From Patescibacteria group bacterium (GTDB lineage: Bacteria; Patescibacteriota; Minisyncoccia; UBA6257; GWB1-50-10): a stretch of 64,000 nt of DNA. The stretch is taken from contig JBBTQX010000004.1 of NCBI GenBank assembly GCA_038065455.1, positions 5,157 to 69,156 on the forward strand. Reading direction: 5' to 3'. Positions 3,362 to 62,740 of the stretch are shown one piece after another. Made by a program: the position numbers and the translations under genes. The notes beneath the pieces are model-generated. The model was not told the origin of the DNA, did no database searches, and saw only the letters and a list, made by a program, of their open reading frames with translations. Numbering within the stretch: position 1 is the stretch's first letter; each line of letters opens with the position of its first letter.

Positions 3362-4627
3362 TACTTTCACTATATCAAGAAAACTCCTCTTCTTAAAGGG
3401 CCCGATGAGCGCCAGATTCAAGCCGTCGTTTCTTACCACTTCCCGCATAACTTTTCTTACGTCATTCGCGGTTATTCCGTTTACCTTCCGAGCCAGCTCC
3501 TGAGGCGAGGTGAGCTTCAGTCCCAGCATTTCCTGGCCGCCGTAGAAATAAGCCAATTCATCCGAGGTTTCGAGCGAGAGATAAAGATTGCCTATCAGAT
3601 GTTCTTTGGCTTTTTTGAGATCTTTTTCGCTCACCAATTCGTTCCGCAAACGGTTGAATTCTTCCAAACCGGCCCTAATAACCGTTTCGATTTTTGTATG
3701 CTCGATTCCCGCCGCCATCGTCAAAAGGCCGTGATCGGAATAAAGGTCGGCATCGGCCCGCACATAATAGGCGGCGCCGAGCTCTTCCCGAATTCTTTGA
3801 AAAAAGCGCGAGCTCATTCCCCCGCCCAGGATTTCGGCCGCGACCTGGAGGGCGATTCGCCGCTCGTCGTGGACGCCGAAAGCGCGGAACCCGAGAACCA
3901 AGTGGGTCTGGTCCGATTTTTTGAATTGAATGAGTTCCCGCGGCCTGGCCTGAATCTCTTTAACTTTGAGTTTTTTGCTTTTGGGTCCGGGCTTCAAAAC
4001 CGAAAAATATTTTTCGATTCTTTTCGCGATGTCTTTCTCGCCGAAAGCGCCCGCGACCGTCACAATCGTGGCTTGAGGCACGTAGTGTTTCGCCCGATAT
4101 TTCATGAAGTCGTTCCGGGTGATGCTCCGAATAACTTCTTTACGGCCGAGAATATCCCAACCCGCCGGCTGATTGCCGTAGACGAGATTCATAAAAAGGC
4201 TCTGAACCTTCCGAGAAGGCGTATCCTCGTACATATTGAACTCCTGGATAATGACGCCTTTTTCTTTTTCGATTTCCCGGGAATCAAATGTCGGATTCAG
4301 ATACATATCGGCCACCACGTCCAATATCTCGTTCACATTCTCTTTTTTCGCTTTTGCATAATAGCTCGTGGATTCCTGACTCGTGAAAGCATTGGATTGC
4401 GCCCCAAGCCCGTCCATCTCCGCCGCAATATCAATCGGCTTCGGCCGCTTTGCCGTACCTTTGAAGCACATATGCTCCAGAAAATGCGAGATGCCGCTTA
4501 TGTCTTTCGTTTCGTATTTCGAGCCGGCCTCCACCGACACCATTACGGTCGCCGCCAGACTGCCCGATTGGGGCGCGAGAATAATCCGCAGACCGTTTTT
4601 TAATTTAATTCTTCTGATATTTTTCAT
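3359..4627 (-). CDS. M16-family zinc peptidase (insulinase-like)
   Basis: HFLEHMCFKGT carries the inverted zinc-binding HxxEH motif. It is 422 aa. Confidence 0.85.
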   Translation of the reverse strand: MKNIRRIKLKNGLRIILAPQSGSLAATVMVSVEAGSKYETKDISGISHFLEHMCFKGTAKRPKPIDIAAEMDGLGAQSNAFTSQESTSYYAKAKKENVNEILDVVADMYLNPTFDSREIEKEKGVIIQEFNMYEDTPSRKVQSLFMNLVYGNQPAGWDILGRKEVIRSITRNDFMKYRAKHYVPQATIVTVAGAFGEKDIAKRIEKYFSVLKPGPKSKKLKVKEIQARPRELIQFKKSDQTHLVLGFRAFGVHDERRIALQVAAEILGGGMSSRFFQRIREELGAAYYVRADADLYSDHGLLTMAAGIEHTKIETVIRAGLEEFNRLRNELVSEKDLKKAKEHLIGNLYLSLETSDELAYFYGGQEMLGLKLTSPQELARKVNGITANDVRKVMREVVRNDGLNLALIGPFKKRSFLDIVKV

Positions 4628-6026
4628 ATATGTAATTTTTTAGTTCTTTGATTTTTACGCGTTCCTGTTTCATCGTATCGCGGTCCCGCACCGTCACGTC
4701 TTCAGTTTCCAGGCTTTCGAAATCCACCGTGATGCAGTAAGGCGTGCCGGCTTCGTCCTGCGCCCGATAGCGCTTGCCCACATTTCCCCTGTCGTCCCAC
4801 GCCACCGTGTACTCTTTCCTCAATTCTTCGTAGATTGTCCGTGCCAGTTTTACCAGCTCCAGCTTATTAGCCAGAAGCGGAAAAACCGCGGCTTTGTAGG
4901 GCGCTAATTTGGGATGTAATTTCAATACAATCCGTTTTTCCATTTCGTTGTTTTCTTTATTTGAATTTTGGGGCTTGTTTAGGATTTCGGATTTCGGATT
5001 TAGGATTTCTTCCGTATACGCATCCATTAGAAAGAAAAGGGTTGCGCGGTCTACGCCGCCCGAGGTCTCGATGATATAAGGCAGAAAGCGTTCCTTGGAT
5101 TCCTCGTCGAAATAGGTCAGATCCTGCTTGGAAAATTCCTGATGGCGCCGCACATCCCAATCGCCCCGATGGTGGATTCCCTCCATCTCCTTCCAGTCGC
5201 CTTCCGCGTTATACTCGATATCGAATGCCGCCTGGGCGTAGTGCGCCAACTGCTCGTGTTCCTTGAAACGGAGATTTTTCTTCGTCATTCCGAGGGACAG
5301 ATACCACTTCATCCGTTCTTCTTTCCAATATTCCATCCACTTCATCGATTCTTTTTTGTCCGGTTTCGTATAGAACTGCAATTCCATCTGCTCGAATTCA
5401 CGGGAGCGGAAAGTGAGTCCGCCGGGCGTTATCTCGTTCCGGAAGGCCTTGCCGACCTGGACGACGCCGAACGGGATTTTAACGCGGGTGGAATCCAGAA
5501 CATTTTTGAAATTCACGTGCACGCCCTGGGTGATTTCGCCGCGGAGATATGTCTTGAGCTTCTCTCCCTCTATTGAGCCGAGATAGGTCTCGACCATCAG
5601 ATTGAATTGCTTCGGTTCGGTTATTTCTCCGCCGCAATCGGGACATCCGCCAGCCGGCGGATTTTTCTCCAATTGGTCGGCGCGAAAACGATGGTGGCAT
5701 TTTTTGCACTCGACGAGCGGGTCGGAAAAAGAATCCAGATGGCCCGATGCCTCCCAAACCTTCGGATTCATTATTATGGCGGCATCCAGGCCCACGATAT
5801 TCTCGTGCTCCTGCGTCATGTTCTTCCAAAACTCGTTCTTGATATTCCGCTTCAATTCCGCCCCGAGCGGGCCGTAATCCCAAGTACCCGCGAGGCCGCC
5901 GTAGATTTCGGAGCCCGGATAAATAAAGCCGCGCCGCTTGGCCAGAGAAGTAATCTTCTCGAAAATATCCTTCTTTTCTTCCTTCTTCATATATGAACCT
6001 ATTGTAAACCGTAAACAACTCTTCAC
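4605..6026 (-). CDS. glyQS: glycyl-tRNA synthetase, class II (GlyQS type)
   Basis: YGGLAGTWDYGPLG and class II aaRS motifs are present. The protein contains an in-frame heptamer-repeat insertion that encodes EILNPKSEILNKP. Confidence 0.9.
   Translation of the reverse strand: MKSCLRFTIGSYMKKEEKKDIFEKITSLAKRRGFIYPGSEIYGGLAGTWDYGPLGAELKRNIKNEFWKNMTQEHENIVGLDAAIIMNPKVWEASGHLDSFSDPLVECKKCHHRFRADQLEKNPPAGGCPDCGGEITEPKQFNLMVETYLGSIEGEKLKTYLRGEITQGVHVNFKNVLDSTRVKIPFGVVQVGKAFRNEITPGGLTFRSREFEQMELQFYTKPDKKESMKWMEYWKEERMKWYLSLGMTKKNLRFKEHEQLAHYAQAAFDIEYNAEGDWKEMEGIHHRGDWDVRRHQEFSKQDLTYFDEESKERFLPYIIETSGGVDRATLFFLMDAYTEEILNPKSEILNKPQNSNKENNEMEKRIVLKLHPKLAPYKAAVFPLLANKLELVKLARTIYEELRKEYTVAWDDRGNVGKRYRAQDEAGTPYCITVDFESLETEDVTVRDRDTMKQERVKIKELKNYIYEKYQKN
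4974..5009. repeat. tandem heptanucleotide repeat (GGATTTC/GGATTTA, 4 units) inside the glyQS coding sequence
   Basis: The + strand reads aggatttcggatttcggatttaggattt. On the coding strand this is GAAATCC units. Confidence 0.85.
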
Positions 6027-6041
6027 TCAAGTTATCAAAAA

Positions 6042-7850
6042 CTATTTAACCACATCGGATTCCCCTGAGATTGCTCCTACTACTGCGCTCGTGACGGAGC
6101 CCGCAACGCTTTGCAAATCGAGTCCGGTAAAATTGTCCAAGGCCTTGAGGCGGGCCGCTCTCAGGAGAAGCTGAGAAGCACCCAACATATCGTCATTCGG
6201 CGTTCCTTCGATTTGAAAGACCGCCTCGGCCGGCTCGCTCAAAACCCCCTTGGTCGCCGCCACTCGGTCGATTCTCCAAACCACCTCGTTCTCCTTCTCG
6301 TCGAAGACGGGCGATTCGCCCAAATTGGCCTTGACCGCGCCACTCCATTTCACCCCGGCGGCGAGCGCCGCCCTTACCTCGACATTATTCAAATCATTGG
6401 AAAAATTCTTTATCACCCAATGGACGGAGTATTGGGTGGATTCGCCCACTTTGGGCGGCAGATTGCCCGCATCCGTTATTCCGCTTTCTTTGTTATTATG
6501 GAAAGTTTGGGCGGTTAGGAGCACCAAGCCGGAAATCTTCGTATCCGACGCCACGCTCACCGACGTCTGGCCGGCCGAAAGATAGTAAGGCACCGAAGGC
6601 GAAGTCACAATCGCGTTCATCCGAACGGAAAAATTGCGGTCGTTCAGCCTCGTAAGATTGAACGAGCTTCTTATCTTCGCCTGGAAATTCACCTCGCCGT
6701 TCGCGCCCGGATCAAGCATCTTCAAAGCCGGCAAATTCGAGAAATTCCAATAAAAAGATTTGGCCGCCGCCGGATCGAGCATTTCTCCGGTCAAAGACGC
6801 GTTCAATTTCACGTCGGCTAAAACAATGCCGCTGTCATTCCGATAACGGATGGAATAATTGAGGGTTTCGCCGACTTTCGCGGTGTAATCTTCCCGACCG
6901 TTCACCGAAACTTCCAGAAAAATCGGCGAAGCGGAAGGCGAGAGATTTACCGTTCCTTCCGCGATTGGATATTCGTTCCCACCCAGTTCGGCCGAAATTT
7001 TAACGGGAATGACGGCAGTCGCCCCATAGGTCAAATCAAGCCGACCAGAAATAACAAGTTTACCCTTCGCCCCGGGAGCCAAAACGCCCAACTTCCAATA
7101 ATTATTGAGCGAAGCCGGCGGAACGCTCGCCGAATCGAATTTGAACGAGTTGGGATACTCCGCCTGCAAGATTAATTCCGAAAAGCTGAAATCGCTCTCA
7201 TTTTTGTAATTCACTTCCAGCTGAAAGCCCGAACCGCTCAATATTTGGCCGGGATTTTTTATTTCCATCGATACGGCCGAGCCTTTTATTTTCACTTCTC
7301 CGGCCGATCGAACTTCGAAACGGGTGCCTGTCCCGATCGAGTAGGATACCGAGGCCGATATTTTCCCGACCGAATTGTCTTCGCCTGTTGCCAAGAGGGA
7401 AAAAGTTTTTTTAACCAGGTTTCCCGAAGCGATGTCACCCGCGCTTTCCGTCGCCAAATTACGGCCTGCGGGAAAACCAGGCACGGCGATGCCCTCGGGA
7501 AGATTGAGGGTAATCACGGCTTTATTAATAACCCCGCCTGAATTATTCGCCATACTAACTTCAACGGAAAAAGGGGTACCCCGTGAAACGCTCTTGGGAA
7601 CGGATACCTCTAGTGTCACATCCCGGGAAACGGAAGTATAGGAAAAGATGAAAAATAAGCCGGCGCCGACTATGAGGAGTGCAATAATACTGCCGATAAG
7701 AAGTATTTTTTTGAGCCACCTGTGATGATCTTCGATATCATCCTCAAATTCGCGGATTTTTTCGGCGAAAGGCTCGATCCCGGCTTTTTTTGCGGTGGGA
7801 AACTTTTTTTGGAAAGTTTTGAGCCTTTTCTCGAGGTTATTCAGGGCCAT
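6042..7850 (-). CDS. membrane-anchored surface protein with repeated beta-sandwich domains (DUF11/CARDB-like)
   Basis: The N-terminus has a TM segment (ILLIGSIIALLIVGAGLFFIF). It is followed by Thr/Ser/Asn-rich repeated modules of about 100 aa. Confidence 0.4.
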   Translation of the reverse strand: MALNNLEKRLKTFQKKFPTAKKAGIEPFAEKIREFEDDIEDHHRWLKKILLIGSIIALLIVGAGLFFIFSYTSVSRDVTLEVSVPKSVSRGTPFSVEVSMANNSGGVINKAVITLNLPEGIAVPGFPAGRNLATESAGDIASGNLVKKTFSLLATGEDNSVGKISASVSYSIGTGTRFEVRSAGEVKIKGSAVSMEIKNPGQILSGSGFQLEVNYKNESDFSFSELILQAEYPNSFKFDSASVPPASLNNYWKLGVLAPGAKGKLVISGRLDLTYGATAVIPVKISAELGGNEYPIAEGTVNLSPSASPIFLEVSVNGREDYTAKVGETLNYSIRYRNDSGIVLADVKLNASLTGEMLDPAAAKSFYWNFSNLPALKMLDPGANGEVNFQAKIRSSFNLTRLNDRNFSVRMNAIVTSPSVPYYLSAGQTSVSVASDTKISGLVLLTAQTFHNNKESGITDAGNLPPKVGESTQYSVHWVIKNFSNDLNNVEVRAALAAGVKWSGAVKANLGESPVFDEKENEVVWRIDRVAATKGVLSEPAEAVFQIEGTPNDDMLGASQLLLRAARLKALDNFTGLDLQSVAGSVTSAVVGAISGESDVVK

Positions 7851-8383
7851 TAGAGATATATTAACTCATCACTCTTCGTTTTTAAACCGCAATTCCGGCA
7901 AAAAAATGACTGGTCTTTCGCACGGAAAAAAGCGGCAGGTCTTCCCGCGCAAATATCGCACTCCGCCTCCTGCGGATCGTAGCCGAGCGCCTTGAGAAAA
8001 ACTTTGACGTCTCCATCCGCCGAAGCCAGACCCTTCACAATCAAATGCCATAGGCGCAAATCGGGCACTCCTTTGGGAGTGAGCGCCCGCACCAGGGATA
8101 TTATCCTGAAAGCCGAGGGATAGAATTTCGGATCTTGCCGATTTTTCCGAAAACTTTCATCAGTCAAAGCATCCGTGAGAATAATGCGATTTTTTTCCGC
8201 CAAACGCACTATTATTACATTGAATAAATTCAAATGCGGGGAGAGCTTCGAAAGAATCCGCCGCCCGCCCACGACATTCGATTCCAAACGGCCGAAATCT
8301 CTGGTATAAAGATCGACTACTCGGTCGCTTTCTTTATGCGGACGAAGCCCAAGAACCACCGCTTGAGTGAGATATTCCGTCAT
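7850..8383 (-). CDS. recO: DNA repair protein RecO (short)
   Basis: MTEYLTQAVVLGLRPHKESDRVV resembles the RecO N-terminal OB fold. The C-terminus has the zinc finger CDICAGRPAAFF..FFCRNCG. The start is the internal Met at 8381-8383, which abuts the stop of the upstream gene. Confidence 0.75.
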   Translation of the reverse strand: MTEYLTQAVVLGLRPHKESDRVVDLYTRDFGRLESNVVGGRRILSKLSPHLNLFNVIIVRLAEKNRIILTDALTDESFRKNRQDPKFYPSAFRIISLVRALTPKGVPDLRLWHLIVKGLASADGDVKVFLKALGYDPQEAECDICAGRPAAFFRAKDQSFFCRNCGLKTKSDELIYL

Positions 8384-9870
8384 CGGGATGCGGGCAGATT
8401 GTCTTTCGGGGTCCGCCAATACCCCAAACGGAATCGGCCGCCGAGCATTAGCCGCGTTTGGGCGTCCAATGCCGGAAACGCCGAGAAAACTATGAAAACC
8501 AGCGGAGTGAGCAGCCACTCGAGAAAATACCAGATCAAATACCACCGCTTGAAGCCTTTGAGCCGCGGATAAAGAATGATAATGCTCAAAAAAGCCGAGG
8601 TAATAATGCCGATGGAGCTCAAATTCAATATCCAGCCGGTCAGGCGGGGAAGATTGTACGAGATGACTGAGGTCCGAAACGCCTCGTCTCCCAATAAATT
8701 CGGGAACCAGCCGAAAAGAAAGATGATAAAAGAGCTTGTGGACCAGGAATATACGCCGTCAAAAAGCGTCCATTTCCAAAAACGCCCGACTTTGGCCGGA
8801 AAAGATTTATCTTTCGAAAAATCATTCGCCGCCCGGGCCAAATTCTCGGCACCCCAGGCCCAGCGCCTCTGTTGTTTATAAAGATTCTTGAGCGCCGCGA
8901 AAAAAGTTTCGCCGGCCACCGCGTCCATGTAAACGGGATAAAGAAGCGGTTCGGCCCGCCAATCGCCCTTATAATGCGCGAGGCATTGGAAAAATATTCT
9001 CGAATCTTCGGAAACGATATCGGTCTCCCAAAACCCGACTTCGACCAAGGCCTTGAGCGGCATACTATGGGAAGAGAATGATACCAATTGCTCCGGCCGC
9101 GACTCCTGCATTAATTGCCAGAAAGAGCCGGAAAATCCGACCAAGCGGGCGAAAAACGGGGCTTCATGGACGTTATTGATAAAAAGCGGAATTGGCTGGA
9201 AACTCGAGCGATATGGATGGGACGAATTCAGGAATTTATAGGCGAGTATTCCGAAATAATCCTGATCGGTGCGCGTATCGATATCGAAAACCGAGACCAG
9301 AACGTCGTCGTAAGAAATACTTAAAGGGTTAATGAGTTTTGAAAGCGCTTCTTTGGCCGCCCAAGCCTGATTCGATCCCTTGCCGGCCAGCTCACCCGGC
9401 AAATCGGCCGGATGACGGGTTATTAGAAAACCCTTGAAAGCGGCGCCGAACTCTTCTTCGATTTTCAAAGCGGTTTCCCGGTCGGTTTCTCCTCCCCTTT
9501 CTTCGGTCGCAAGAACGACGAAAAATTTTTCTTTCGGATAATTGGCTTCTATGAGATTTGAAAATGCCTGTTTTATTATCCCATAGCTTTCCCGATAGAC
9601 CGGCAATATCACCAAGTGGCGGATTTTCTCCCAATTTTCCGGATTATCTTTTTTCAACTTCGCGAGCCAATCCATCTTCAGATTGGCATTCATCTTGGTG
9701 AACGACGAACGGAGGTGAAAAAAGAGATAGATTAGCTTTAAAAACCAATAAAGATCGTAAAGAAGGATGAAAACGACCACGGCGACGGGCGCGCGCCAAG
9801 AAAGAAATGCGAGACCGAAAAGAGTAAGCCAGGCCAGGGCGCCAGGCATTATTTCCCAAAATCGAATCAT
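8380..9870 (-). CDS. family 2 glycosyltransferase, processive type (QxxRW motif), membrane-bound
   Basis: VILPVYRE..FFVVLATEERGGETD is a GT-A DxD-like region. QQRRWAWGAENL is the QxxRW motif. Several TM segments are present. Confidence 0.7.
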   Translation of the reverse strand: MIRFWEIMPGALAWLTLFGLAFLSWRAPVAVVVFILLYDLYWFLKLIYLFFHLRSSFTKMNANLKMDWLAKLKKDNPENWEKIRHLVILPVYRESYGIIKQAFSNLIEANYPKEKFFVVLATEERGGETDRETALKIEEEFGAAFKGFLITRHPADLPGELAGKGSNQAWAAKEALSKLINPLSISYDDVLVSVFDIDTRTDQDYFGILAYKFLNSSHPYRSSFQPIPLFINNVHEAPFFARLVGFSGSFWQLMQESRPEQLVSFSSHSMPLKALVEVGFWETDIVSEDSRIFFQCLAHYKGDWRAEPLLYPVYMDAVAGETFFAALKNLYKQQRRWAWGAENLARAANDFSKDKSFPAKVGRFWKWTLFDGVYSWSTSSFIIFLFGWFPNLLGDEAFRTSVISYNLPRLTGWILNLSSIGIITSAFLSIIILYPRLKGFKRWYLIWYFLEWLLTPLVFIVFSAFPALDAQTRLMLGGRFRLGYWRTPKDNLPASR

Positions 9871-9883
9871 AAAAAGAGGCTAT

Positions 9884-10285
9884 TTAGTATATGAGGATAC
9901 CGAGGAAATTCTCCAAACTGTAAGCTCCGCCGCCGAGAACCGCAAGCGCGATTGCCGCGGCGAAAATAATGAGGTCGAATTCATAGCCGTCCGCCAATCC
10001 TTTCTTCATTTTCATCTTCAAAATTATGACGGCAAATTGAATCGCGATTAATACCGCGACGAGCTGGACGAGAAATCCGGCCAGCAAAAATATTCCGCCG
10101 ACGAACTCCAATATTGAAACGACGGCCGCCCAAAAGATTCCCGGCTTAAATATCTGTCCCATCCACTCCGCCGTTCCTTTGATGTTTTTTATCTTCGGCC
10201 AGCCATGGGCGATTAAAATGATGCCCAATATCACCCTTAAAAAAGCTATCCCGATGCCCCCGAATACAAATAAAGGTTGAATCAT
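9884..10285 (-). CDS. DoxX-family membrane protein
   Basis: MIQPLFVFGGIGIAFLRVILGIILIAHGWPKI is a DoxX-like sequence. The start is taken at the internal ATG (10283-10285) so the gene does not run across the tsaD start. Confidence 0.55.
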   Translation of the reverse strand: MIQPLFVFGGIGIAFLRVILGIILIAHGWPKIKNIKGTAEWMGQIFKPGIFWAAVVSILEFVGGIFLLAGFLVQLVAVLIAIQFAVIILKMKMKKGLADGYEFDLIIFAAAIALAVLGGGAYSLENFLGILIY

Positions 10286-10330
10286 GCCTGTAAGTATACA
10301 ACCGCCGGATTTATCCGTAAAATGGTTGGA

Positions 10331-11437
10331 ATGAAGATACTCGCAATCGAAACGTCCTGCGATGAAACCGCGCTCGCGCTTCTCAAAGCAAGCGGGGGCT
10401 TGCGCGCTCCGAAATTTAAAGTCATTAAGAATCTGGTCTCTTCCCAGATAGAAGTGCATCGGCCCTGGGGTGGCGTCGTGCCGAACCTCGCCAAACGAGA
10501 ACACATTAAAAATTTGCCGATTGTGTTTGAGCAAATTTTTTCAAATCCTAAATACCGATTTCATCGAGTATCCTCGACAAAGTCGGGACAAATTCAAAAT
10601 TCTAAAATCCAAATTCCAAAAATTGATCTGCTGGCCGTAACAGTGGGACCGGGACTGGAGCCGGCACTTTGGACCGGCGTCGAATTCGCAAAAGAATTGA
10701 AAAAAAATATTTTTCCGAAAGTTCCGCTAATCGGCGCAAACCATTTGGAGGGACACCTATACAGTTTTTTGCTATCGCAAAAAACTGCAAATCCTAAATC
10801 CAAAATCCTAAATCCTAAAATATTTCCCGCAATTGCGCTTATAGCAAGCGGGGGTCATACCATTCTTCTCAAGATGGAATCACTCATAAAATGGAAAAAA
10901 TTGGGTGAAACGCGGGATGACGCGGTGGGCGAGGCTTTCGATAAAGCGGCAAGAATACTCGGCCTTCCCTACCCTGGCGGACCGGAAATTCAGAAGCTCG
11001 CAGCTAACGGCAATCCCGAAGCCGTCGCCTTCCCTCGTCCGATGATTTACGACAATTCGCCGACTGGCAAATATGAATTCAGTTTCTCTGGTTTGAAAAC
11101 TTCCGTCCTTTATTATCTGCGGGATAATCCGAAAGCCGACAAAGCGAATGTAGCCGCCTCATTCCAGAAAGCTGCGGTGGACGTTCTGATATCGAAAACC
11201 GCCCGCGCCGTTCGGGAATTTAAGGCGAAATCGGTAATGCTTTCGGGCGGCGTCGCGGCCAACGCGTATCTTAGAGACAGACTGCGAGAGGCAAGCGACA
11301 AGATGGGTGTAAATTTCCTGGTGCCGCCGATGGATTTCAATACCGATAACGCCGTGATGATCGCGGCCGCGGCCTATATCCAAAATCTGCGCAAAAAGAA
11401 ATACGCCATTCGCGCCCAAGGGAATTTGAATTTATAA
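10331..11437 (+). CDS. tsaD: tRNA N6-adenosine threonylcarbamoyltransferase TsaD (Kae1/Gcp family)
   Basis: MKILAIETSCDETALAL, LIASGGHT and GVAANAYLR are all present. Two low-complexity heptamer-repeat insertions are also present. Confidence 0.9.
   Translation: MKILAIETSCDETALALLKASGGLRAPKFKVIKNLVSSQIEVHRPWGGVVPNLAKREHIKNLPIVFEQIFSNPKYRFHRVSSTKSGQIQNSKIQIPKIDLLAVTVGPGLEPALWTGVEFAKELKKNIFPKVPLIGANHLEGHLYSFLLSQKTANPKSKILNPKIFPAIALIASGGHTILLKMESLIKWKKLGETRDDAVGEAFDKAARILGLPYPGGPEIQKLAANGNPEAVAFPRPMIYDNSPTGKYEFSFSGLKTSVLYYLRDNPKADKANVAASFQKAAVDVLISKTARAVREFKAKSVMLSGGVAANAYLRDRLREASDKMGVNFLVPPMDFNTDNAVMIAAAAYIQNLRKKKYAIRAQGNLNL
10589..10623. repeat. degenerate heptamer repeat (AAATTCA/AAAATCC ...) in tsaD
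   Basis: The sequence is aaattcaaaattctaaaatccaaattccaaaaatt. It encodes QIQNSKIQIPK. Confidence 0.7.
10789..10816. repeat. heptamer repeat AAATCCT/AAATCCA, 4 units, in tsaD
   Basis: The sequence is aaatcctaaatccaaaatcctaaatcct. It encodes ANPKSKILNPK. Confidence 0.85.
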
Positions 11438-11444
11438 TTGGAAT

Positions 11445-13709
11445 ATGAACGCTGATTTTTCAAAGCCCTATGACCCGAAGATAACCGAAGAAAAAATATA
11501 CCAGCTTTGGCTTGATTCCGGCTATTTCAATCCGGACAACCTGCCTGCGCAGGCAGGCCTGCCTGTCGCAAAAATCAAAAATTCAAAAATTAAAAATTAC
11601 GTGGTATATATGCCCCTCCCGAACGTGACGGGCACGCTCCATATGGGCCACGCCTTGAACAACACCATTCAGGATATTCTCATCCGTTATCATCGGATGA
11701 AGGGATATAAAACGCTCTGGCTCCCCGGCACAGACCACGCCGGCATCGCCACGCAGTACGTGGTGGAAAAAGACCTGCGAAAACAAAATATTTCCCGTTT
11801 CGAACTCGGCCGGGAAAAATTCGTGGAGAAGGTCTGGGAATGGAAGAAAAAATATGGCGACGCGATCTTAAACCAGCTCAAAAAAATTGGCATCTCGGCC
11901 GATTGGTCCCGCACGCGCTTCACGATGGACGAAGCCTATAGCCAAGATGTTTTAAAAGTCTTCGTTCATTACTACGAGAAGGGCTGGCTTTATCGCGGAC
12001 TCCGCACCGTGAACTGGTGCCCGAAGGATGGCACAAGCCTCTCCGAGCTGGAACTGGAATACGAGGATACCGAAACCAAACTCTGGTATATCAACTATCC
12101 GCTTACGGATAGTAAATCCGAAATCCGAAATCCGAAATCCGAATTCATAACAGTGGCGACAACGAGACCCGAAACGATGCTGGGCGATACCGCGATTGCC
12201 GTGAATCCCGCCGACAAGAGATACAAGCATCTTATCGGAAAGACCGTCGTCCTTCCGATTCAAAATCGAGAGATACCGATTGTGGGCGATATCGCGATAG
12301 ACCCTAAGTTCGGCACGGGCGCGGTCAAGGTGACGCCGGCCCACGATATTCTCGATTTCGAAATCGGCCAACGGCACAAACTGGAAACGATTCAGGTAAT
12401 AGACGAACGGGCCAAAATGACGGTGATAGCCGGAAAGTATGCCGGACTAAAAGCCGTTGAAGCCCGCGAAAAAATCGTGAACGACCTCAAAGAAATGGGG
12501 CTTCTGGTAAAAGAAGAAAAATATCAAACCCGCGTCGCGAAGTGCTACCGTTGCGGCACGATTATTGAGCCTATCCCATCCAATCAATGGTTTTTGAAGA
12601 TGGATAAATTGGGAGCGATGGCGAAGCAGGCCGTGAAATCCAAAAAAGTGAGAATTCAGCCGAAAAATTTCGAGAAAACCTACTTGAATTGGCTTGAAAA
12701 CGTCCGCGACTGGTCGGTCTCCCGCCAAATTTGGTGGGGACACCGGTTGCCGGTTTGGTTTCACGAGCCGAAGTGCGTTCCCAAAAAGGGCCGCGAAAAG
12801 GATTCCGCCAAGTGCGAGGAGATGGTGGTTTCGCTCACCGAACCGGAGTGTAAATATTGCGAAGGGAAATATATCCAATCGGAAGACGTGCTTGATACCT
12901 GGTTTTCCTCCGCTCTTTGGCCATTTGCCGGGCTTTCTAAAGAAGATGCAGAAAAATATTATCCCGGAAACGTCCTCGTAACCGCCCGCGACATCATTAA
13001 TTTATGGGTCGCGCGGATGATCTTCTCCGGCTTAGAATTCAAGAAAAAGGTTCCCTTCACTGATGTCTTCATTAACGGCACCATCCTTGCCAAGGACGGC
13101 CGGCGAATGTCCAAAAGCCTCGGCACTGGCATTGACCCGCTGAATTACATCGGACTGCATGGAGCGGACGCGACACGTTTCGCTATCATCTGGCAGGCCT
13201 CCGGCCAGGATATCCGCTGGGACGAGGCGGCCGTCATGGCCGGCCGGAAATTCTGCAATAAAATCTGGAACGCATCCCGCTTTGTTATAGAACAAAGCGG
13301 AAATCCGAAATCCGAAATCCGAAATCCGAAACCTCGAACGGCAGCGGATAAAAAGATTCTTAAGAAGCTCGCGGCGGTGAAAAAACAAACCGGAAAAAAC
13401 ATAGAAAAATTCGAGTTCTCGAAAGCGCTCCACGATATTTACGATTTCTTCTGGCATGAGTTCTGCGACATTTACATCGAGGAGACAAAAAAAATTCACC
13501 CCGTTAGAAATAGCCCGCCCCAAGGCCCGGAGGGCGCGCGCCGCGCGGGCGAGATTTCTAACGGGGCAGGAGGAAATTCGGCAGAAATATTGATGTATGT
13601 ATTAAAAGAATCCCTTAAAATGCTCCATCCATTCATGCCATTCATCACGGAAGCGATCTATGGAAACATGGCCGAAAAAAATGGGCTTTTAATGGTTGAA
13701 AAATGGTAG
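11445..13709 (+). CDS. valS: valyl-tRNA synthetase (C-terminally short)
   Basis: PNVTGTLHMGHAL is the HIGH region, DGRRMSKSLG is the KMSKS motif, and LHPFMPFITE is present. The protein is 754 aa. It contains two GAAATCC repeat insertions and a 69-bp element inserted in frame. Confidence 0.9.
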   Translation: MNADFSKPYDPKITEEKIYQLWLDSGYFNPDNLPAQAGLPVAKIKNSKIKNYVVYMPLPNVTGTLHMGHALNNTIQDILIRYHRMKGYKTLWLPGTDHAGIATQYVVEKDLRKQNISRFELGREKFVEKVWEWKKKYGDAILNQLKKIGISADWSRTRFTMDEAYSQDVLKVFVHYYEKGWLYRGLRTVNWCPKDGTSLSELELEYEDTETKLWYINYPLTDSKSEIRNPKSEFITVATTRPETMLGDTAIAVNPADKRYKHLIGKTVVLPIQNREIPIVGDIAIDPKFGTGAVKVTPAHDILDFEIGQRHKLETIQVIDERAKMTVIAGKYAGLKAVEAREKIVNDLKEMGLLVKEEKYQTRVAKCYRCGTIIEPIPSNQWFLKMDKLGAMAKQAVKSKKVRIQPKNFEKTYLNWLENVRDWSVSRQIWWGHRLPVWFHEPKCVPKKGREKDSAKCEEMVVSLTEPECKYCEGKYIQSEDVLDTWFSSALWPFAGLSKEDAEKYYPGNVLVTARDIINLWVARMIFSGLEFKKKVPFTDVFINGTILAKDGRRMSKSLGTGIDPLNYIGLHGADATRFAIIWQASGQDIRWDEAAVMAGRKFCNKIWNASRFVIEQSGNPKSEIRNPKPRTAADKKILKKLAAVKKQTGKNIEKFEFSKALHDIYDFFWHEFCDIYIEETKKIHPVRNSPPQGPEGARRAGEISNGAGGNSAEILMYVLKESLKMLHPFMPFITEAIYGNMAEKNGLLMVEKW
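11541..11603. repeat. GC palindrome plus AAAAATN heptamer run in the valS N-terminal region
   Basis: The GC palindrome is cctgcctgcgcaggcaggcctgcctg. It is followed by aaaaatcaaaaattcaaaaattaaaaatt, which encodes AKIKNSKIKN. Confidence 0.6.
12114..12141. repeat. tandem heptamer AAATCCG x4 in valS
   Basis: The sequence is aaatccgaaatccgaaatccgaaatccg. It encodes KSEIRNPKSE. Confidence 0.9.
13301..13328. repeat. tandem heptamer AAATCCG x4 in valS
   Basis: The sequence is aaatccgaaatccgaaatccgaaatccg. It encodes NPKSEIRNPK. Confidence 0.9.
13498..13566. mobile_element. small element bounded by inverted repeats (copy d), inserted in frame in valS
   Basis: The ends are CCCCGTTAGAAAT ... ATTTCTAACGGGG, a 13-bp inverted repeat. 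The core is GC-rich. At 69 bp it adds 23 codons (PVRNSPPQGPEGARRAGEISNGA). Confidence 0.6.
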
Positions 13710-14383
13710 CCGCACTCAACTTAGCCGTTATCCTTGCGCTCGCCTTCCTGCCTTCCATCGTCTGGCTCATTTTCTTTCTCAAGGAAGACCGCCATCCCGA
13801 ACCGAAGAAATTGATATTTTTGGTCTTCTGCGCGGGCGCGCTCGCGAGCGTTCCGGCGATTGTTTTTCAATTCGGATTCCAGAGATTTGTGAGCAACCCT
13901 CTTCACCTTTTTATCGTTACCATTCTCGGACTGGCGCTCATTGAGGAAATTTTCAAGTTTTCCGCGGCTTATTTCAGCGTCCGAAAAGAGCCGGCCTTCA
14001 ACGAGCCGGTGGACGCGATGATTTATTCCATCGTCGCCGCCCTGGGCTTCGCCACGATAGAAAATTTGTTCATTATGGGGGACAAGATGCAATATTTGAC
14101 CGTAAACAGCCTAATCGTGAGCGTGAGCACGCTCGGTTTCCGCTTCGTGGGTGCTACCCTGCTCCATACTCTCGCCTCGGCCTTCGCTGGCTACTATTGG
14201 GCCAGGCGGAAAATTTTCCTCGGTCTCGCGGCGGCCACACTCTCTCATTTCATCTTCAATTATCTCGTTTATCGATTCGAAAGCGTGAGTCTGCTTTACC
14301 CCTCCATTTTCCTCGTTTTTCTCGCAATCTTCATCTTCAATGATTTTTCAAAATTGGACAGGCAACAAAATTCATCGGACTAA
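13703..14383 (+). CDS. PrsW-like intramembrane protease family protein
   Basis: A multi-TM protein with EEIFKF, GFATIENLF and LLHTLASAF, which resemble the PrsW motifs. Confidence 0.45.
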   Translation: MVAALNLAVILALAFLPSIVWLIFFLKEDRHPEPKKLIFLVFCAGALASVPAIVFQFGFQRFVSNPLHLFIVTILGLALIEEIFKFSAAYFSVRKEPAFNEPVDAMIYSIVAALGFATIENLFIMGDKMQYLTVNSLIVSVSTLGFRFVGATLLHTLASAFAGYYWARRKIFLGLAAATLSHFIFNYLVYRFESVSLLYPSIFLVFLAIFIFNDFSKLDRQQNSSD

Positions 14384-48391: not shown

Positions 48392-50443
48392 ATGGACTTA
48401 GCGAGAAAAATATACAAAACAAGTATGAAAGGCGAGGAGGTTTCGTTTGAAGTTTCGAAAATAGCCGGCCAGGCGAATGCGGCCGTCATAGGCCGGCATG
48501 GCGATACGGCCGTTTTGGCAGCCGTTGTAATGAGTGAGCAGGACAAGAGCGGGGATTTCTTTCCGCTCACAGTTGATTATGAAGAAAGATTTTATGCCGC
48601 CGGAAAAATCCTCGGTAGCCGTTTCGTGCGTCGCGAAGGCAAAGCCACAGATGATGCCGTACTCTCCGCCCGCGTCATCGACCGTACCATCCGCCCGCTC
48701 TTCGACCCCCGCCTCCGCCGCGAAGTCCAGGTAGTTATCACTATTCTTTCTTACGAAGAAAAAAATGATCCGGATTTTATCGCGCTTCTATCGGCTTCGG
48801 CCGCGCTCGCCATCTCCGACATTCCCTGGAACGGCCCAGTGGCCGGAATGAAGATTATTTCTCCGGAAAATGGAGATATTGCGAGTTATCAGGCTTATTT
48901 CGCCGGAACGGATAAGAAAATTAATATGATAGAGTTCGAGGGGAAAGAGATTTCCGAGAGCGTGGCGGAAAAAGTTTTCGCCGAATGTTTCGAAGAAATC
49001 AAAAAATTGGTGGCTTTTCAGAGAGATATCGCGAAGGAAATAGGAAAACCCAAGGCCCAAGTGGCTCTGGCAACCGCCGATCCGAAAACCCAATCCGTCG
49101 TGAATGAATTTTTGAAAGAAGATTTGGAGGAAGCTCTTGCGGCTAAGCACACCGAAGGGTTACGGAAAAAAATATTGGAACATCTCGAAAAAGCCGGCGA
49201 GAATGAGAGCGTGCTCAATTCCGCCGAGGTCTTCTTCGAGGAAGAGGTGGACAAATATGTCCATACTTTGGCAATAGAAAAAGATAAGCGGGTTGACGGA
49301 AGAAAAATGGATGAGGTTCGCGATCTTCATGCCGAAGCCGGTCTTTTTAAAAGAGTTCATGGCTCGGCGCTCTTCTGCCGAGGTGAAACTCAGGTTTTGG
49401 CGATGACAACTCTTGCGACGCCCGAAGGCAAACAACTTGTTGAGAGCATGGAGGGCACAATCAAGAAGCGTTTTATGCTGAACTATAATTTCCCGGGTTT
49501 TGCAACCGGAGAAACAGGACGCTCCAATCGGGGACCCGGCCGCCGAGAAATCGGCCACGGCGCATTGGCTGCGAAAGCCGTCGTTGCGATGCTGCCCTCC
49601 GAAGAAGAATTTCCTTATGCAATCCGCGTCGTTGCCGAAACTCTTTCCTCGAACGGCTCCTCCTCTATGGCTTCAACCTGCGCAACCTCGCTCTCGCTTA
49701 TGGATGCCGGCATACCGCTCAAAAAACAAGTGGCTGGAATTTCCATCGGATTGATGAGTGATGAAAGCGGCCGCTACAAACTCCTAACCGACATTCAAGG
49801 ACCGGAAGACCATTACGGAGATATGGATTTCAAGGTGGCCGGCACGCGCGACGGAATAAATGCCATTCAGATGGATGTGAAAGTAGACGGTATTACGCTT
49901 CAAATTTTCAAAGAAGCTTTAATGGCCGCGAAGACCGCACGCTTCCAAATACTGGATGTTATGGATAAAACGCTTTCCGCACCCCGCGCAGATCTTTCGC
50001 CTTTTGCGCCCCGTATCACAACCATCCAAATCCCCATTGAAAATATCGGGCAAATTATCGGTCCGGGCGGAAAAACAATTAACGGCATTCTGGCTCAGAC
50101 CCAAAATAAGGTAACGATAGATATCGAAGAAGACGGAAGAATATTTATCGCCGGCACCGATTCGGCTCTCGTCGCTCAAGCGGTTTCGATAATCAAAGGA
50201 ATTGCGAAGGATGTGAATATCGGAGAAATGGTTGAAGGAACGATAATTAAAATATTGGATTTTGGAGCAATTGTGGATCTCGGCGGCGGCAAAGATGGAA
50301 TGATCCATGTTTCCGAACTCAAAGAAGGTTTTGTTAAAAAAGTGGAAGATGTCGTCAAGGTGGGCGATTTTGTAAGAGCGAAAGTAATCCGATCGGAGGA
50401 CGGAAAAATCGGACTTTCTCTGAAGCAGGTGGCGGCGAAGTAA
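48392..50443 (+). CDS. pnp: polyribonucleotide nucleotidyltransferase (PNPase)
   Basis: There are two RNase PH domains, a KH domain and an S1 domain. Recognisable segments are GRHGDTAVL, GETQVL, RFMLNYNFPGF and GDMDFKVAGT. Confidence 0.95.
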   Translation: MDLARKIYKTSMKGEEVSFEVSKIAGQANAAVIGRHGDTAVLAAVVMSEQDKSGDFFPLTVDYEERFYAAGKILGSRFVRREGKATDDAVLSARVIDRTIRPLFDPRLRREVQVVITILSYEEKNDPDFIALLSASAALAISDIPWNGPVAGMKIISPENGDIASYQAYFAGTDKKINMIEFEGKEISESVAEKVFAECFEEIKKLVAFQRDIAKEIGKPKAQVALATADPKTQSVVNEFLKEDLEEALAAKHTEGLRKKILEHLEKAGENESVLNSAEVFFEEEVDKYVHTLAIEKDKRVDGRKMDEVRDLHAEAGLFKRVHGSALFCRGETQVLAMTTLATPEGKQLVESMEGTIKKRFMLNYNFPGFATGETGRSNRGPGRREIGHGALAAKAVVAMLPSEEEFPYAIRVVAETLSSNGSSSMASTCATSLSLMDAGIPLKKQVAGISIGLMSDESGRYKLLTDIQGPEDHYGDMDFKVAGTRDGINAIQMDVKVDGITLQIFKEALMAAKTARFQILDVMDKTLSAPRADLSPFAPRITTIQIPIENIGQIIGPGGKTINGILAQTQNKVTIDIEEDGRIFIAGTDSALVAQAVSIIKGIAKDVNIGEMVEGTIIKILDFGAIVDLGGGKDGMIHVSELKEGFVKKVEDVVKVGDFVRAKVIRSEDGKIGLSLKQVAAK

Positions 50444-62336: not shown

Positions 62337-62395
62337 GCAATTTTTAATTTTTGAATTTTTAAATAAATTATAATGTCTGAATTTTTAAACACTTT

Positions 62396-62740
62396 ATGAA
62401 ATATGATTTGGAAGAGAGGACGGCTAAATTTGGAGAAAGTGTCATATTTTTCATTAAGAAAATTCCTGAAAATCGGATAAACCAGCCACTAATAAACCAA
62501 GTCATAAGGTCTGCTACGAGCATTGGGGCTAATTATATGGAGGCTAACCAGGCAAGCTCTAAAAAGGATTTTAGAAATAAAATAAGAATTTCCCAAAAAG
62601 AATCTAATGAAACTAAGCATTGGATTAGAATGATGGCCGCCGCGAACCAGAACCATAAAGAAGAGTGTATGGTTTTATGGAAAGAGGCCCACGAATTAAC
62701 CTTGATTTTTGCTAAAATATCAAAAAATTGCGGTGTTTAA
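62396..62740 (+). CDS. four-helix-bundle protein (23S rRNA intervening-sequence protein family)
   Basis: RSATSIGANYMEANQASSKKDFRNKIRISQKESNETKHWIRM resembles the family pattern. It lies in an AT-rich islet. Confidence 0.55.
   Translation: MKYDLEERTAKFGESVIFFIKKIPENRINQPLINQVIRSATSIGANYMEANQASSKKDFRNKIRISQKESNETKHWIRMMAAANQNHKEECMVLWKEAHELTLIFAKISKNCGV

Follow-up and report, generated by a model that had tools for sequence, protein, structure and literature searches.

In-frame heptanucleotide arrays as probable passenger insertions in the loops of essential enzymes of a Patescibacteria lineage

How can tandem arrays of a 7-nt unit, the length of which is not divisible by three, reside in frame within essential genes? 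This question is raised by a 64,000-nt stretch of DNA (hereafter, the window) from an ultra-small Patescibacteria group bacterium of groundwater (assembly GCA_038065455.1, contig JBBTQX010000004.1), in which such arrays lie within glyQS, tsaD, and valS. They had been described in a sequence-only reading of the window, and the arrays proved genuine, in frame, and located in essential genes; six were confirmed at or within 1–3 nt of the coordinates given there. We consider that they are heptanucleotide long simple-sequence repeats (LSSRs), a known class, which are tolerated as passenger insertions in loops and filtered by selection, and we assign this account of slippage plus selection a probability of roughly 0.6. 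The setting, inside essential genes of a gene-dense lineage of the candidate phyla radiation (CPR), is what is new compared with published heptamer repeats.

Arrays were detected in the window using Tandem Repeats Finder (TRF) and by direct reading of the sequence. TRF reported period 7, with 4.0–4.6 copies and 80–100% matches, at six loci, all of which were within the three genes and carried an A-rich, GAAATCC-like coding strand. A self-similarity scan over periods 4–12 yielded four strong arrays of period 7, one of period 9, and none of the others, and base shuffles of the window produced no arrays at any period from 4 to 12. The family pattern AAATCCNAAATCCNAAATCC, searched with up to 3 mismatches, showed 15 overlapping matches at 5 loci, compared with 0.36 expected; no match in the window was intergenic, in agreement with the earlier observation. 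Positions 4978–13334 contain all six arrays, and the other ~50 kb has none, including its open reading frames (ORFs) of 1278, 693, 683, and 662 aa.

The valS gene (11445..13709, plus strand) encodes a valine--tRNA ligase of 754 aa with PF00133 and PF08264, which exactly matches MEK7651131.1, a protein from a Patescibacteria metagenome-assembled genome (MAG) with relatives annotated as Minisyncoccia, Paceibacterota, or Jorgensenbacteria. It contains three arrays and two GC-rich hairpin inserts. On the plus strand, valS array 1 (12114..12146) reads AAATCC-(GAAATCC)3-GAAtTC over 33 nt and encodes KSEIRNPKSEF; TRF called it at 12114–12143 as AAATCCG x4.3 with 100% matches. Array 2 (13300..13334, plus strand) reads (GAAATCC)4-GAAAcC and encodes GNPKSEIRNPK, with a TRF call at 13300–13331 of GAAATCC x4.6, also with 100% matches. 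The third array (11569..11598, plus strand) is degenerate, CAAAAAT x4, and encodes KIKNSKIKN within an N-terminal insertion. The tsaD gene (10328..11437, plus strand; tRNA t6A37 threonylcarbamoyltransferase, 369 aa; PF00814, E = 1.2e-71, with PDB matches to TsaD structures) contains two arrays. One (10789..10821, plus strand) reads AAATCCT AAATCCA AAATCCT AAATCCT AAAAT, encodes NPKSKILNPKI, and was called by TRF at 10789–10819 as AAATCCT/A x4.4; the other (10589..10620, plus strand) is degenerate, CAAATTC AAAATTC TAAAATC CAAATTC C, with 80% matches, and encodes QIQNSKIQIPK.

The third host, glyQS (4605..5990, minus strand; 461 aa; MEK7651125.1), contains one array at 4978..5009 on the minus strand, the coding strand of which reads GAAATCC TAAATCC GAAATCC GAAATCC TAAA and encodes ILNPKSEILNK. 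On the plus strand this is GGATTTC/GGATTTA x4.6. The array had earlier been given as GGATTTC x4; it is real, yet one of its four units is GGATTTA and its start was off by one. Pfam names ValRS and TsaD directly, whereas for the glyQS product it identifies only a class II aminoacyl-tRNA synthetase core and an anticodon-binding domain. Source names and PDB matches (8U2Q, E = 7e-139) identify this host as a glycine--tRNA ligase (GlyRS).

All four strong arrays in the window fit AAATCC-(NAAATCC)3-NAAAYN, i.e., 33 nt or 11 codons. Because 7 and 3 have no common factor, every frame of a GAAATCC array encodes the same cyclic peptide, K-S-E-I-R-N-P. The translations carry SKSEIRNPKSEF, GNPKSEIRNPKP, ANPKSKILNPKI, and ILNPKSEILNKP, and the repeated NPKSEIR-like peptides described earlier are cyclic peptides of the KSEIRNP type. 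The seventh position holds all six variant bases of the window arrays, and the T variant at this position is missing precisely in the phase where an in-frame TAA would result. Across 415 internal units from all loci, variation per position was 13, 10, 0, 6, 5, 11, and 3 (p = 0.004), which is only mildly non-uniform, and we make no claim of a constrained AAATC core.

Alignment of orthologues placed every array within a loop of variable length, and these loops are short or absent in orthologues and solved structures, as the sequence-only reading had expected. The AlphaFold2 model of ValS had a mean predicted local distance difference test score (pLDDT) of 88.8 and a predicted template modelling score of 0.87, and the only segments with pLDDT below 50 were residues 37–46, 225–231, 689–693, and 699–709; these are the sites of the N-terminal insert, of array 1, and of a GC-rich insert. 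In this model, array 1 is predicted to form the tip of a beta-hairpin where the editing domain begins (residues 225–231, pLDDT below 50), and array 2 a loop of the anticodon-binding domain between helices 595–618 and 633–654. Residues 37–46 comprise a palindrome-encoded segment and the first residues of the CAAAAAT array, the site of which reads KVRNSKFEIRN or KNSKLKAKN in relatives. Compared with the T. maritima TsaD structure 6N9A, the tsaD array at 10789 aligns to gaps and the degenerate array at 10589 lies within an insertion of ~20 residues. The glyQS array is in the linker preceding the anticodon-binding domain and aligns to gaps in GlyRS 8U2Q.

The preference for a period of seven extends across the clade. 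In 80 loci fetched by ValS homology regardless of repeats, together with L201 and L202 (82 loci, 956 kb), 121 arrays had period 7, and periods 4, 5, 6, 8, 9, 10, 11, and 12 accounted for 0, 1, 6, 4, 6, 2, 2, and 8 arrays, respectively. The sequence-only reading had found the arrays themselves and missed both this specificity and their membership in a known prokaryotic repeat class. When the window was included, 113 of 125 arrays (90%) were in long ORFs, compared with an ORF coverage of 86.5%, indicating that arrays are not depleted from genes. Further hosts confirmed with Pfam were SHMT, FolD, Mur ligase, IleRS, ArgRS, GyrA, and RecG, as well as a HAD-family P-type ATPase fragment and a response regulator.

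Within ValS, 56 arrays in 83 genes occupied five positions only, equivalent to window residues 43–49, 219–235, 443–455, 497–500, and 616–632. Many differing units were present at each of these hot spots, and both valS array 1 and array 2 are located at one. The busiest was 616–632, the site of array 2, with 28 of the 56 arrays; its loop DNA in the 83 genes contained fresh arrays of many units, decayed arrays, and a mixed array of AAATCCG followed by three AAATTCG. A proto-repeat, CAAATCGGAAATTCCAAA (Q-I-G-N-S-K), was widely shared at the left edge of this loop. Units varied widely both between and within genomes. In L188, L161, L182, L162, L174, L192, and L153, the equivalent ValS loop contained in-frame palindromic, hairpin-forming inserts (for example, GAAGTCCGACTTCGG...GAAGTCGGACTTC) in place of heptamer arrays; therefore, two kinds of small repeat use common permissive sites.

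The arrays bear signatures of selection in their composition and orientation. The units were A-rich and G-poor on the coding strand (A 388, T 199, C 156, G 48), compared with a background coding-strand composition of A 0.32, T 0.27, G 0.22, and C 0.19. The more hydrophilic of the two orientations was used in 82 of 100 non-redundant intragenic arrays (p = 6e-11) and, among units free of stop codons on both strands, in 24 of 33 (p = 0.014). Mean hydropathy of the 113 intragenic arrays was -0.99, compared with +0.87 for the reverse orientation, and the encoded residues were mainly K, N, S, I, Q, L, F, P, and T. Orientation in the window tracks the gene strand and not the DNA strand, i.e., minus for glyQS and plus for tsaD and valS.

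Comparison of strains showed that individual arrays come and go. L201 and L202 are contigs from other Hainich groundwater samples with 96–99% nucleotide identity to the window. In both, the arrays at 10589 and 11569 were unchanged, and valS array 2 (13300) was of equal length with one G-to-T change (R to L). Array 1 of valS was absent from L201/L202 and from P0001/P0002 (96–97% BLASTP identity to the window ValS), the alleles being 39 nt shorter, and the glyQS array was missing from the 94% identical P0131 within a lost segment of 17 residues (51 nt). At tsaD 10789, the window allele was 15 nt longer than that of L201 and lay within a divergent patch. These differences of 39, 15, and 51 nt are all multiples of 3 and none is a multiple of 7 or 21. 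The suggestion that the arrays are kept at multiples of three units was thus not borne out; they contain 4.3–4.6 units. No target-site duplication was visible at the filled and empty alleles, the flanks of which have diverged.

From 6900 to 13740, the window and L201 form a mosaic in which stretches of 0–1 differences per 100 nt are broken by patches of 18–34 (9300–9500, 10700–10900, 11100–11400, and 12600–12900). The mosaic could be due to frequent short-tract recombination between diverged strains or to chimeras from the assembly of strain mixtures. Both polymorphic arrays covered by L201, those of tsaD and valS array 1, are inside divergent patches, and we rejected recent simple insertion. 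Divergent patches also occur away from arrays; therefore, general recombination explains most of the presence/absence differences. The choice between recent expansion and an ancient low-complexity region, as posed in the sequence-only reading, was oversimplified: the sites are long-standing hot spots common to the clade, and the arrays at them turn over, with differing units in each lineage.

We propose that the arrays originate by tandem duplication specific to period 7, probably because replication slips with unusual efficiency on 7-nt units. The substrate would be A-rich proto-repeats in loop-coding DNA, such as CAAATCGGAAATTCCAAA, and the arrays would settle at ~4.5 units (31–33 nt). Because the genome is ~87% coding, most arrays presumably arise in genes. 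Selection would then retain those in which length changes by a net multiple of 3 nt, the reading frame contains no stop codon, the A-rich strand is the coding strand, giving a hydrophilic peptide rich in K/N/S/I/Q/P, and the site is an insertion-tolerant surface loop. The surviving arrays are probably translated into disordered loop extensions and carried by the essential enzymes as near-neutral passengers. Turnover may proceed by mutation of units followed by homogenisation, by exchange between arrays of the same genome, and by short-patch recombination between strains.

This account draws on a class of repeats that is known from other prokaryotes. Heptanucleotide LSSRs, which include LSSR5-11 (work of Mrazek, Guo and Shah from 2007, summarised in both PMC4679880 and PMC4692102), are over-represented in many prokaryotes. 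Examples include the cyanobacterial short tandemly repeated repetitive sequences (STRRs), the Xanthomonas GGGAATC repeats, most arrays of which have four units, and the Nostoc GGGGAYT repeats (PMC4692102), as well as TAACTGA repeats in Beggiatoaceae, Cyanobacteria, and Bacteroidetes (PMC4679880). In published work, heptamer repeats are the most over-represented class of simple-sequence repeat in many prokaryotes, typically have ~four units, and belong to genome-specific unit families, some of which recur in more than one phylum; their proposed but unproven generator is polymerase slippage (PMC4679880, PMC4692102). For Patescibacteria, a search of the literature turned up no report of heptamer repeats. 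The arrays described here resemble LSSR/STRR repeats in their head-to-tail 7-nt units, the excess specific to period 7, the many dispersed arrays per genome, the number of ~four units, the related units within a genome, and the recurrence of a unit in distant phyla. However, published repeats are overwhelmingly intergenic, at protein termini, or in hypothetical ORFs and are reported as typical of large genomes, whereas those of this ~1-Mb-class CPR lineage are ~90% intragenic, in the middle of essential enzymes, at loop hot spots, and strongly biased toward the coding strand. Location is the main point of difference, and intergenic location is a descriptive and not a defining trait of the class.

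A second comparison is with the Rickettsia palindromic elements (RPEs), reportedly described by Ogata et al. in 2000 and 2002. Like the arrays, RPEs are in-frame repeated DNA in unrelated housekeeping genes of a reduced genome, form surface segments compatible with the fold, and differ in presence or absence between relatives (PMC10969869). They are, however, ~100–150 bp, palindromic, similar to miniature inverted-repeat transposable elements, and encode a conserved peptide family, whereas the arrays are tandem heptamers of ~33 nt with no inverted repeat. RPEs are the closest parallel for the in-gene, selection-filtered behaviour of the arrays. The two GC-rich hairpin inserts of valS resemble RPEs more closely than the heptamer arrays do. 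One, at 11540–11565, is a perfect 18-nt GC-rich palindrome, CCTGCCTGCGCAGGCAGG, followed by CCTGCCTG; it lies in frame directly upstream of the CAAAAAT array, encodes PAQAGLPV, is unique in the window, is absent from most orthologues, and is disordered in the model. The other, at 13494–13570, is a GC-rich hairpin (CCCCGTTAGAAAT...ATTTCTAACGGGG; -40.6 kcal/mol, z = -3.3), in frame near the C-terminus, which encodes HPVRNSPPQGPEGARRAGEISNGAGG; the 92% identical P0127 allele lacks it, and its pLDDT is below 50.

Arrays of this kind are found well beyond the clade. (GAAATCC)3 was found in more than 120 species-representative genomes of Verrucomicrobiota, Acidobacteriota, Planctomycetota, Chloroflexota, Bacteroidota, Deltaproteobacteria, and Patescibacteria. 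In a cross-phylum sample of 120 loci, from which the 146 seeded AAATCCG arrays were excluded for period counts, there were 70 other exact period-7 arrays. Period 4 had 21, and periods 5, 6, and 8–12 had 3, 9, 2, 2, 1, 0, and 0. In viral contigs, GAAATCC arrays occurred at 22 loci, compared with 5 and 7 for two composition-matched controls (~3–4x). The unit is thus only modestly enriched over control heptamers, and we rejected the idea that GAAATCC forms a unique element shared across phyla. In the Acidobacteria MAG SZAS-13 (L026, L043, L056, and L063), and also in L078 and L109, we observed intergenic inverted pairs consisting of (GGATTTC)n, 60–160 nt, and (GAAATCC)n; one member lies immediately past a stop codon and its partner shortly before the following start, and some pairs bracket a whole small gene.

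Several observations weigh against slippage plus selection as the whole explanation. Array length peaked sharply at 31–34 nt (100 of 148 arrays for GAAATCC, 48 of 135 for other units), and anchored profiles of 134 GAAATCC arrays gave [A/C]AATCC-(GAAATCC)3-GAAAT[C], i.e., five AAATC cores with 7-nt spacing over 33 nt, with sharp, phase-specific ends and random sequence outside. Open-ended slippage does not obviously predict either the peak or such ends. In addition, stepwise 7-nt slippage would break an essential gene and does not account for the birth of an in-frame array of ~4.5 units. Shared arrays showed no differences in unit number in ten locus pairs that were 98–100% identical or between the window and L201/L202, and the earlier idea that the arrays may be hypermutable sites was therefore not supported. 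L197 and L198 differed at 30 positions in 4,565 nt, 26 of them within 49 nt, where the (AAAATTT/G)x5 array of L197 TsaD was swapped for (AAAAGCT/ATAAGCT)x5 in a background of 99.9% identity; L198 is the derived state because the more distant L137 has exactly the array of L197. Units were also more similar within genomes (mean Hamming distance 2.02 compared with 2.52 +/- 0.10, a value reached in 0 of 2,000 shuffles; p < 0.0005), and L183 contained an identical compound array at two ValS sites. AAGCGAC arrays were likewise found at two sites in L139.

The reading that we rank second is that the arrays are discrete elements of ~33 nt, copied or inserted whole by templated insertion or by gene conversion between arrays of one genome, as tiny non-autonomous mobile repeats, with 33 nt (11 codons) being what preserves the frame. 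We regard this as unlikely, but it would account for a length mode of 32–33 nt regardless of unit and phylum, the sharp ends and non-uniform starting phase of the 134 GAAATCC arrays, the common 33-nt fit of the four strong window arrays, the similarity of units within genomes, including the arrays repeated at two sites in L183 and L139, the whole-array swap in L198, the presence/absence alleles, and the sharing of one unit by many phyla. However, conserved flanks, terminal inverted repeats, and target-site duplications were not found; in the window and the 134 GAAATCC arrays, the sequence beyond 33 nt was random, and we rejected a mobile element with conserved flanks. Filled and empty alleles with diverged flanks differed by 39, 15, and 51 nt and not by 33, and the lengths of intragenic clade arrays were evenly spread over 31, 32, and 33 nt (mod 3 classes 42/36/35). 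Unrelated units occupied the same loops in different lineages beside a shared proto-repeat, which suggests growth in situ. Finally, control heptamers in viral contigs also formed arrays of ~31–35 nt, indicating that the length preference is generic to heptamer arrays and that no sequence-specific element is needed.

A related conjecture, which we hold only tentatively and consider improbable, is that the arrays are not ordinary slippage products and that units of ~33 nt (five cores with 7-nt spacing) arise or are swapped in a single step through a conserved mechanism that measures length and is shared across bacterial phyla. Its products would be caught in frame in the essential genes of gene-dense CPR genomes. 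Candidates for the mechanism are templated synthesis, templated insertion, and short-patch conversion between arrays. If it were true, the clade would be a natural record for working out the mechanism and the reason for "seven".

We think it highly doubtful that the arrays are functional cis-elements in which five AAATC-type cores bind a multimeric or multi-domain RNA- or DNA-binding protein (S1, Csp, or a ring protein), tuning translation or mRNA fate, with array length set by selection for binding. The preferred number of ~five cores is constant across phyla, and the SZAS-13 arrays just upstream of starts and just after stops echo the TAACTGA repeats found upstream of starts (PMC4679880). 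The arrays are also unstructured as RNA, which would suit single-strand binding: valS array 1 had a minimum free energy of 0 kcal/mol (z +2.06) and array 2 of -4.8 kcal/mol (z -0.10), no better than dinucleotide shuffles, and RNA structure was itself ruled out as an explanation. However, arrays of the clade lie within coding regions at loops, away from starts; their units differ widely between and within genomes; they are dispensable in near-identical strains; and their internal positions vary only mildly non-uniformly.

Phase-variable contingency loci, in which slippage by one unit switches an essential gene off or is rescued by frameshifting and thereby generates population heterogeneity, are a very improbable explanation. 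The arrays share with the simple-sequence repeats of host-adapted pathogens such as Haemophilus, Neisseria, and Helicobacter an intragenic location and a tandem unit that is not a multiple of three, and the perfect repetition of the units also speaks for this reading. However, contingency loci switch expression, are found in genes for surface or restriction-modification functions, and vary in unit number between close isolates. We saw none of this; the hosts are single-copy essential enzymes, and no near-identical pair differed in unit number. The arrays are not on/off switches. A programmed -1 frameshift site was likewise rejected: AAATCCG lacks the X XXY YYZ pattern of a slippery site, and the ORF continues in the zero frame, matching orthologues on both sides. 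Assembly or sequencing artefacts, which the sequence-only reading had considered, are almost certainly not responsible: every sequence is from a metagenome assembly, but the arrays at 10589, 11569, and 13300 recur, identical or one single-nucleotide polymorphism apart, in independent assemblies of other samples, long ORFs stay open with arrays at loop positions, and homologous sites bear arrays in dozens of unrelated assemblies.

Other features were observed in the same material. TRF called further tandem repeats in the window at 48657–48719 and 62338–62397, with periods of 24–25 nt and 26 nt. In L132 (604–4071, minus strand), an IleRS of 1156 aa contains a complete histidine-phosphatase domain (PF00300, E = 7e-35) between its catalytic and anticodon-binding parts. 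A GyrA ORF of 1247 aa in L144 (14510–18250, minus strand) has an insertion of ~400 aa after GQGNFG, which appears intein-like as judged by sequence only. P0122 and P0130, fragments of ValS and GlyRS on a 205-kb contig, are locally frameshifted, likely owing to indel errors of long-read assembly.

Under slippage plus selection, arrays in this lineage steadily supply the core proteins with loop insertions. Prokaryotes have been known since 2007 to carry an excess of 7-nt microsatellites, which has never been explained, and selection on the published arrays is hard to read because almost all are intergenic. Arrays inside conserved essential proteins can be aligned, placed on structures, and dated by comparison with orthologues, and their frame, stop codons, and peptide chemistry can be assessed; therefore, the birth of an array, its stop at ~33 nt, and its replacement become tractable comparative problems. 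Heptamer arrays are also an abundant source of lineage-specific loop insertions in CPR proteins, which is relevant to the annotation, phylogenomics, and structure prediction of these bacteria. Because array segments are non-homologous, they should be masked in phylogenomics.

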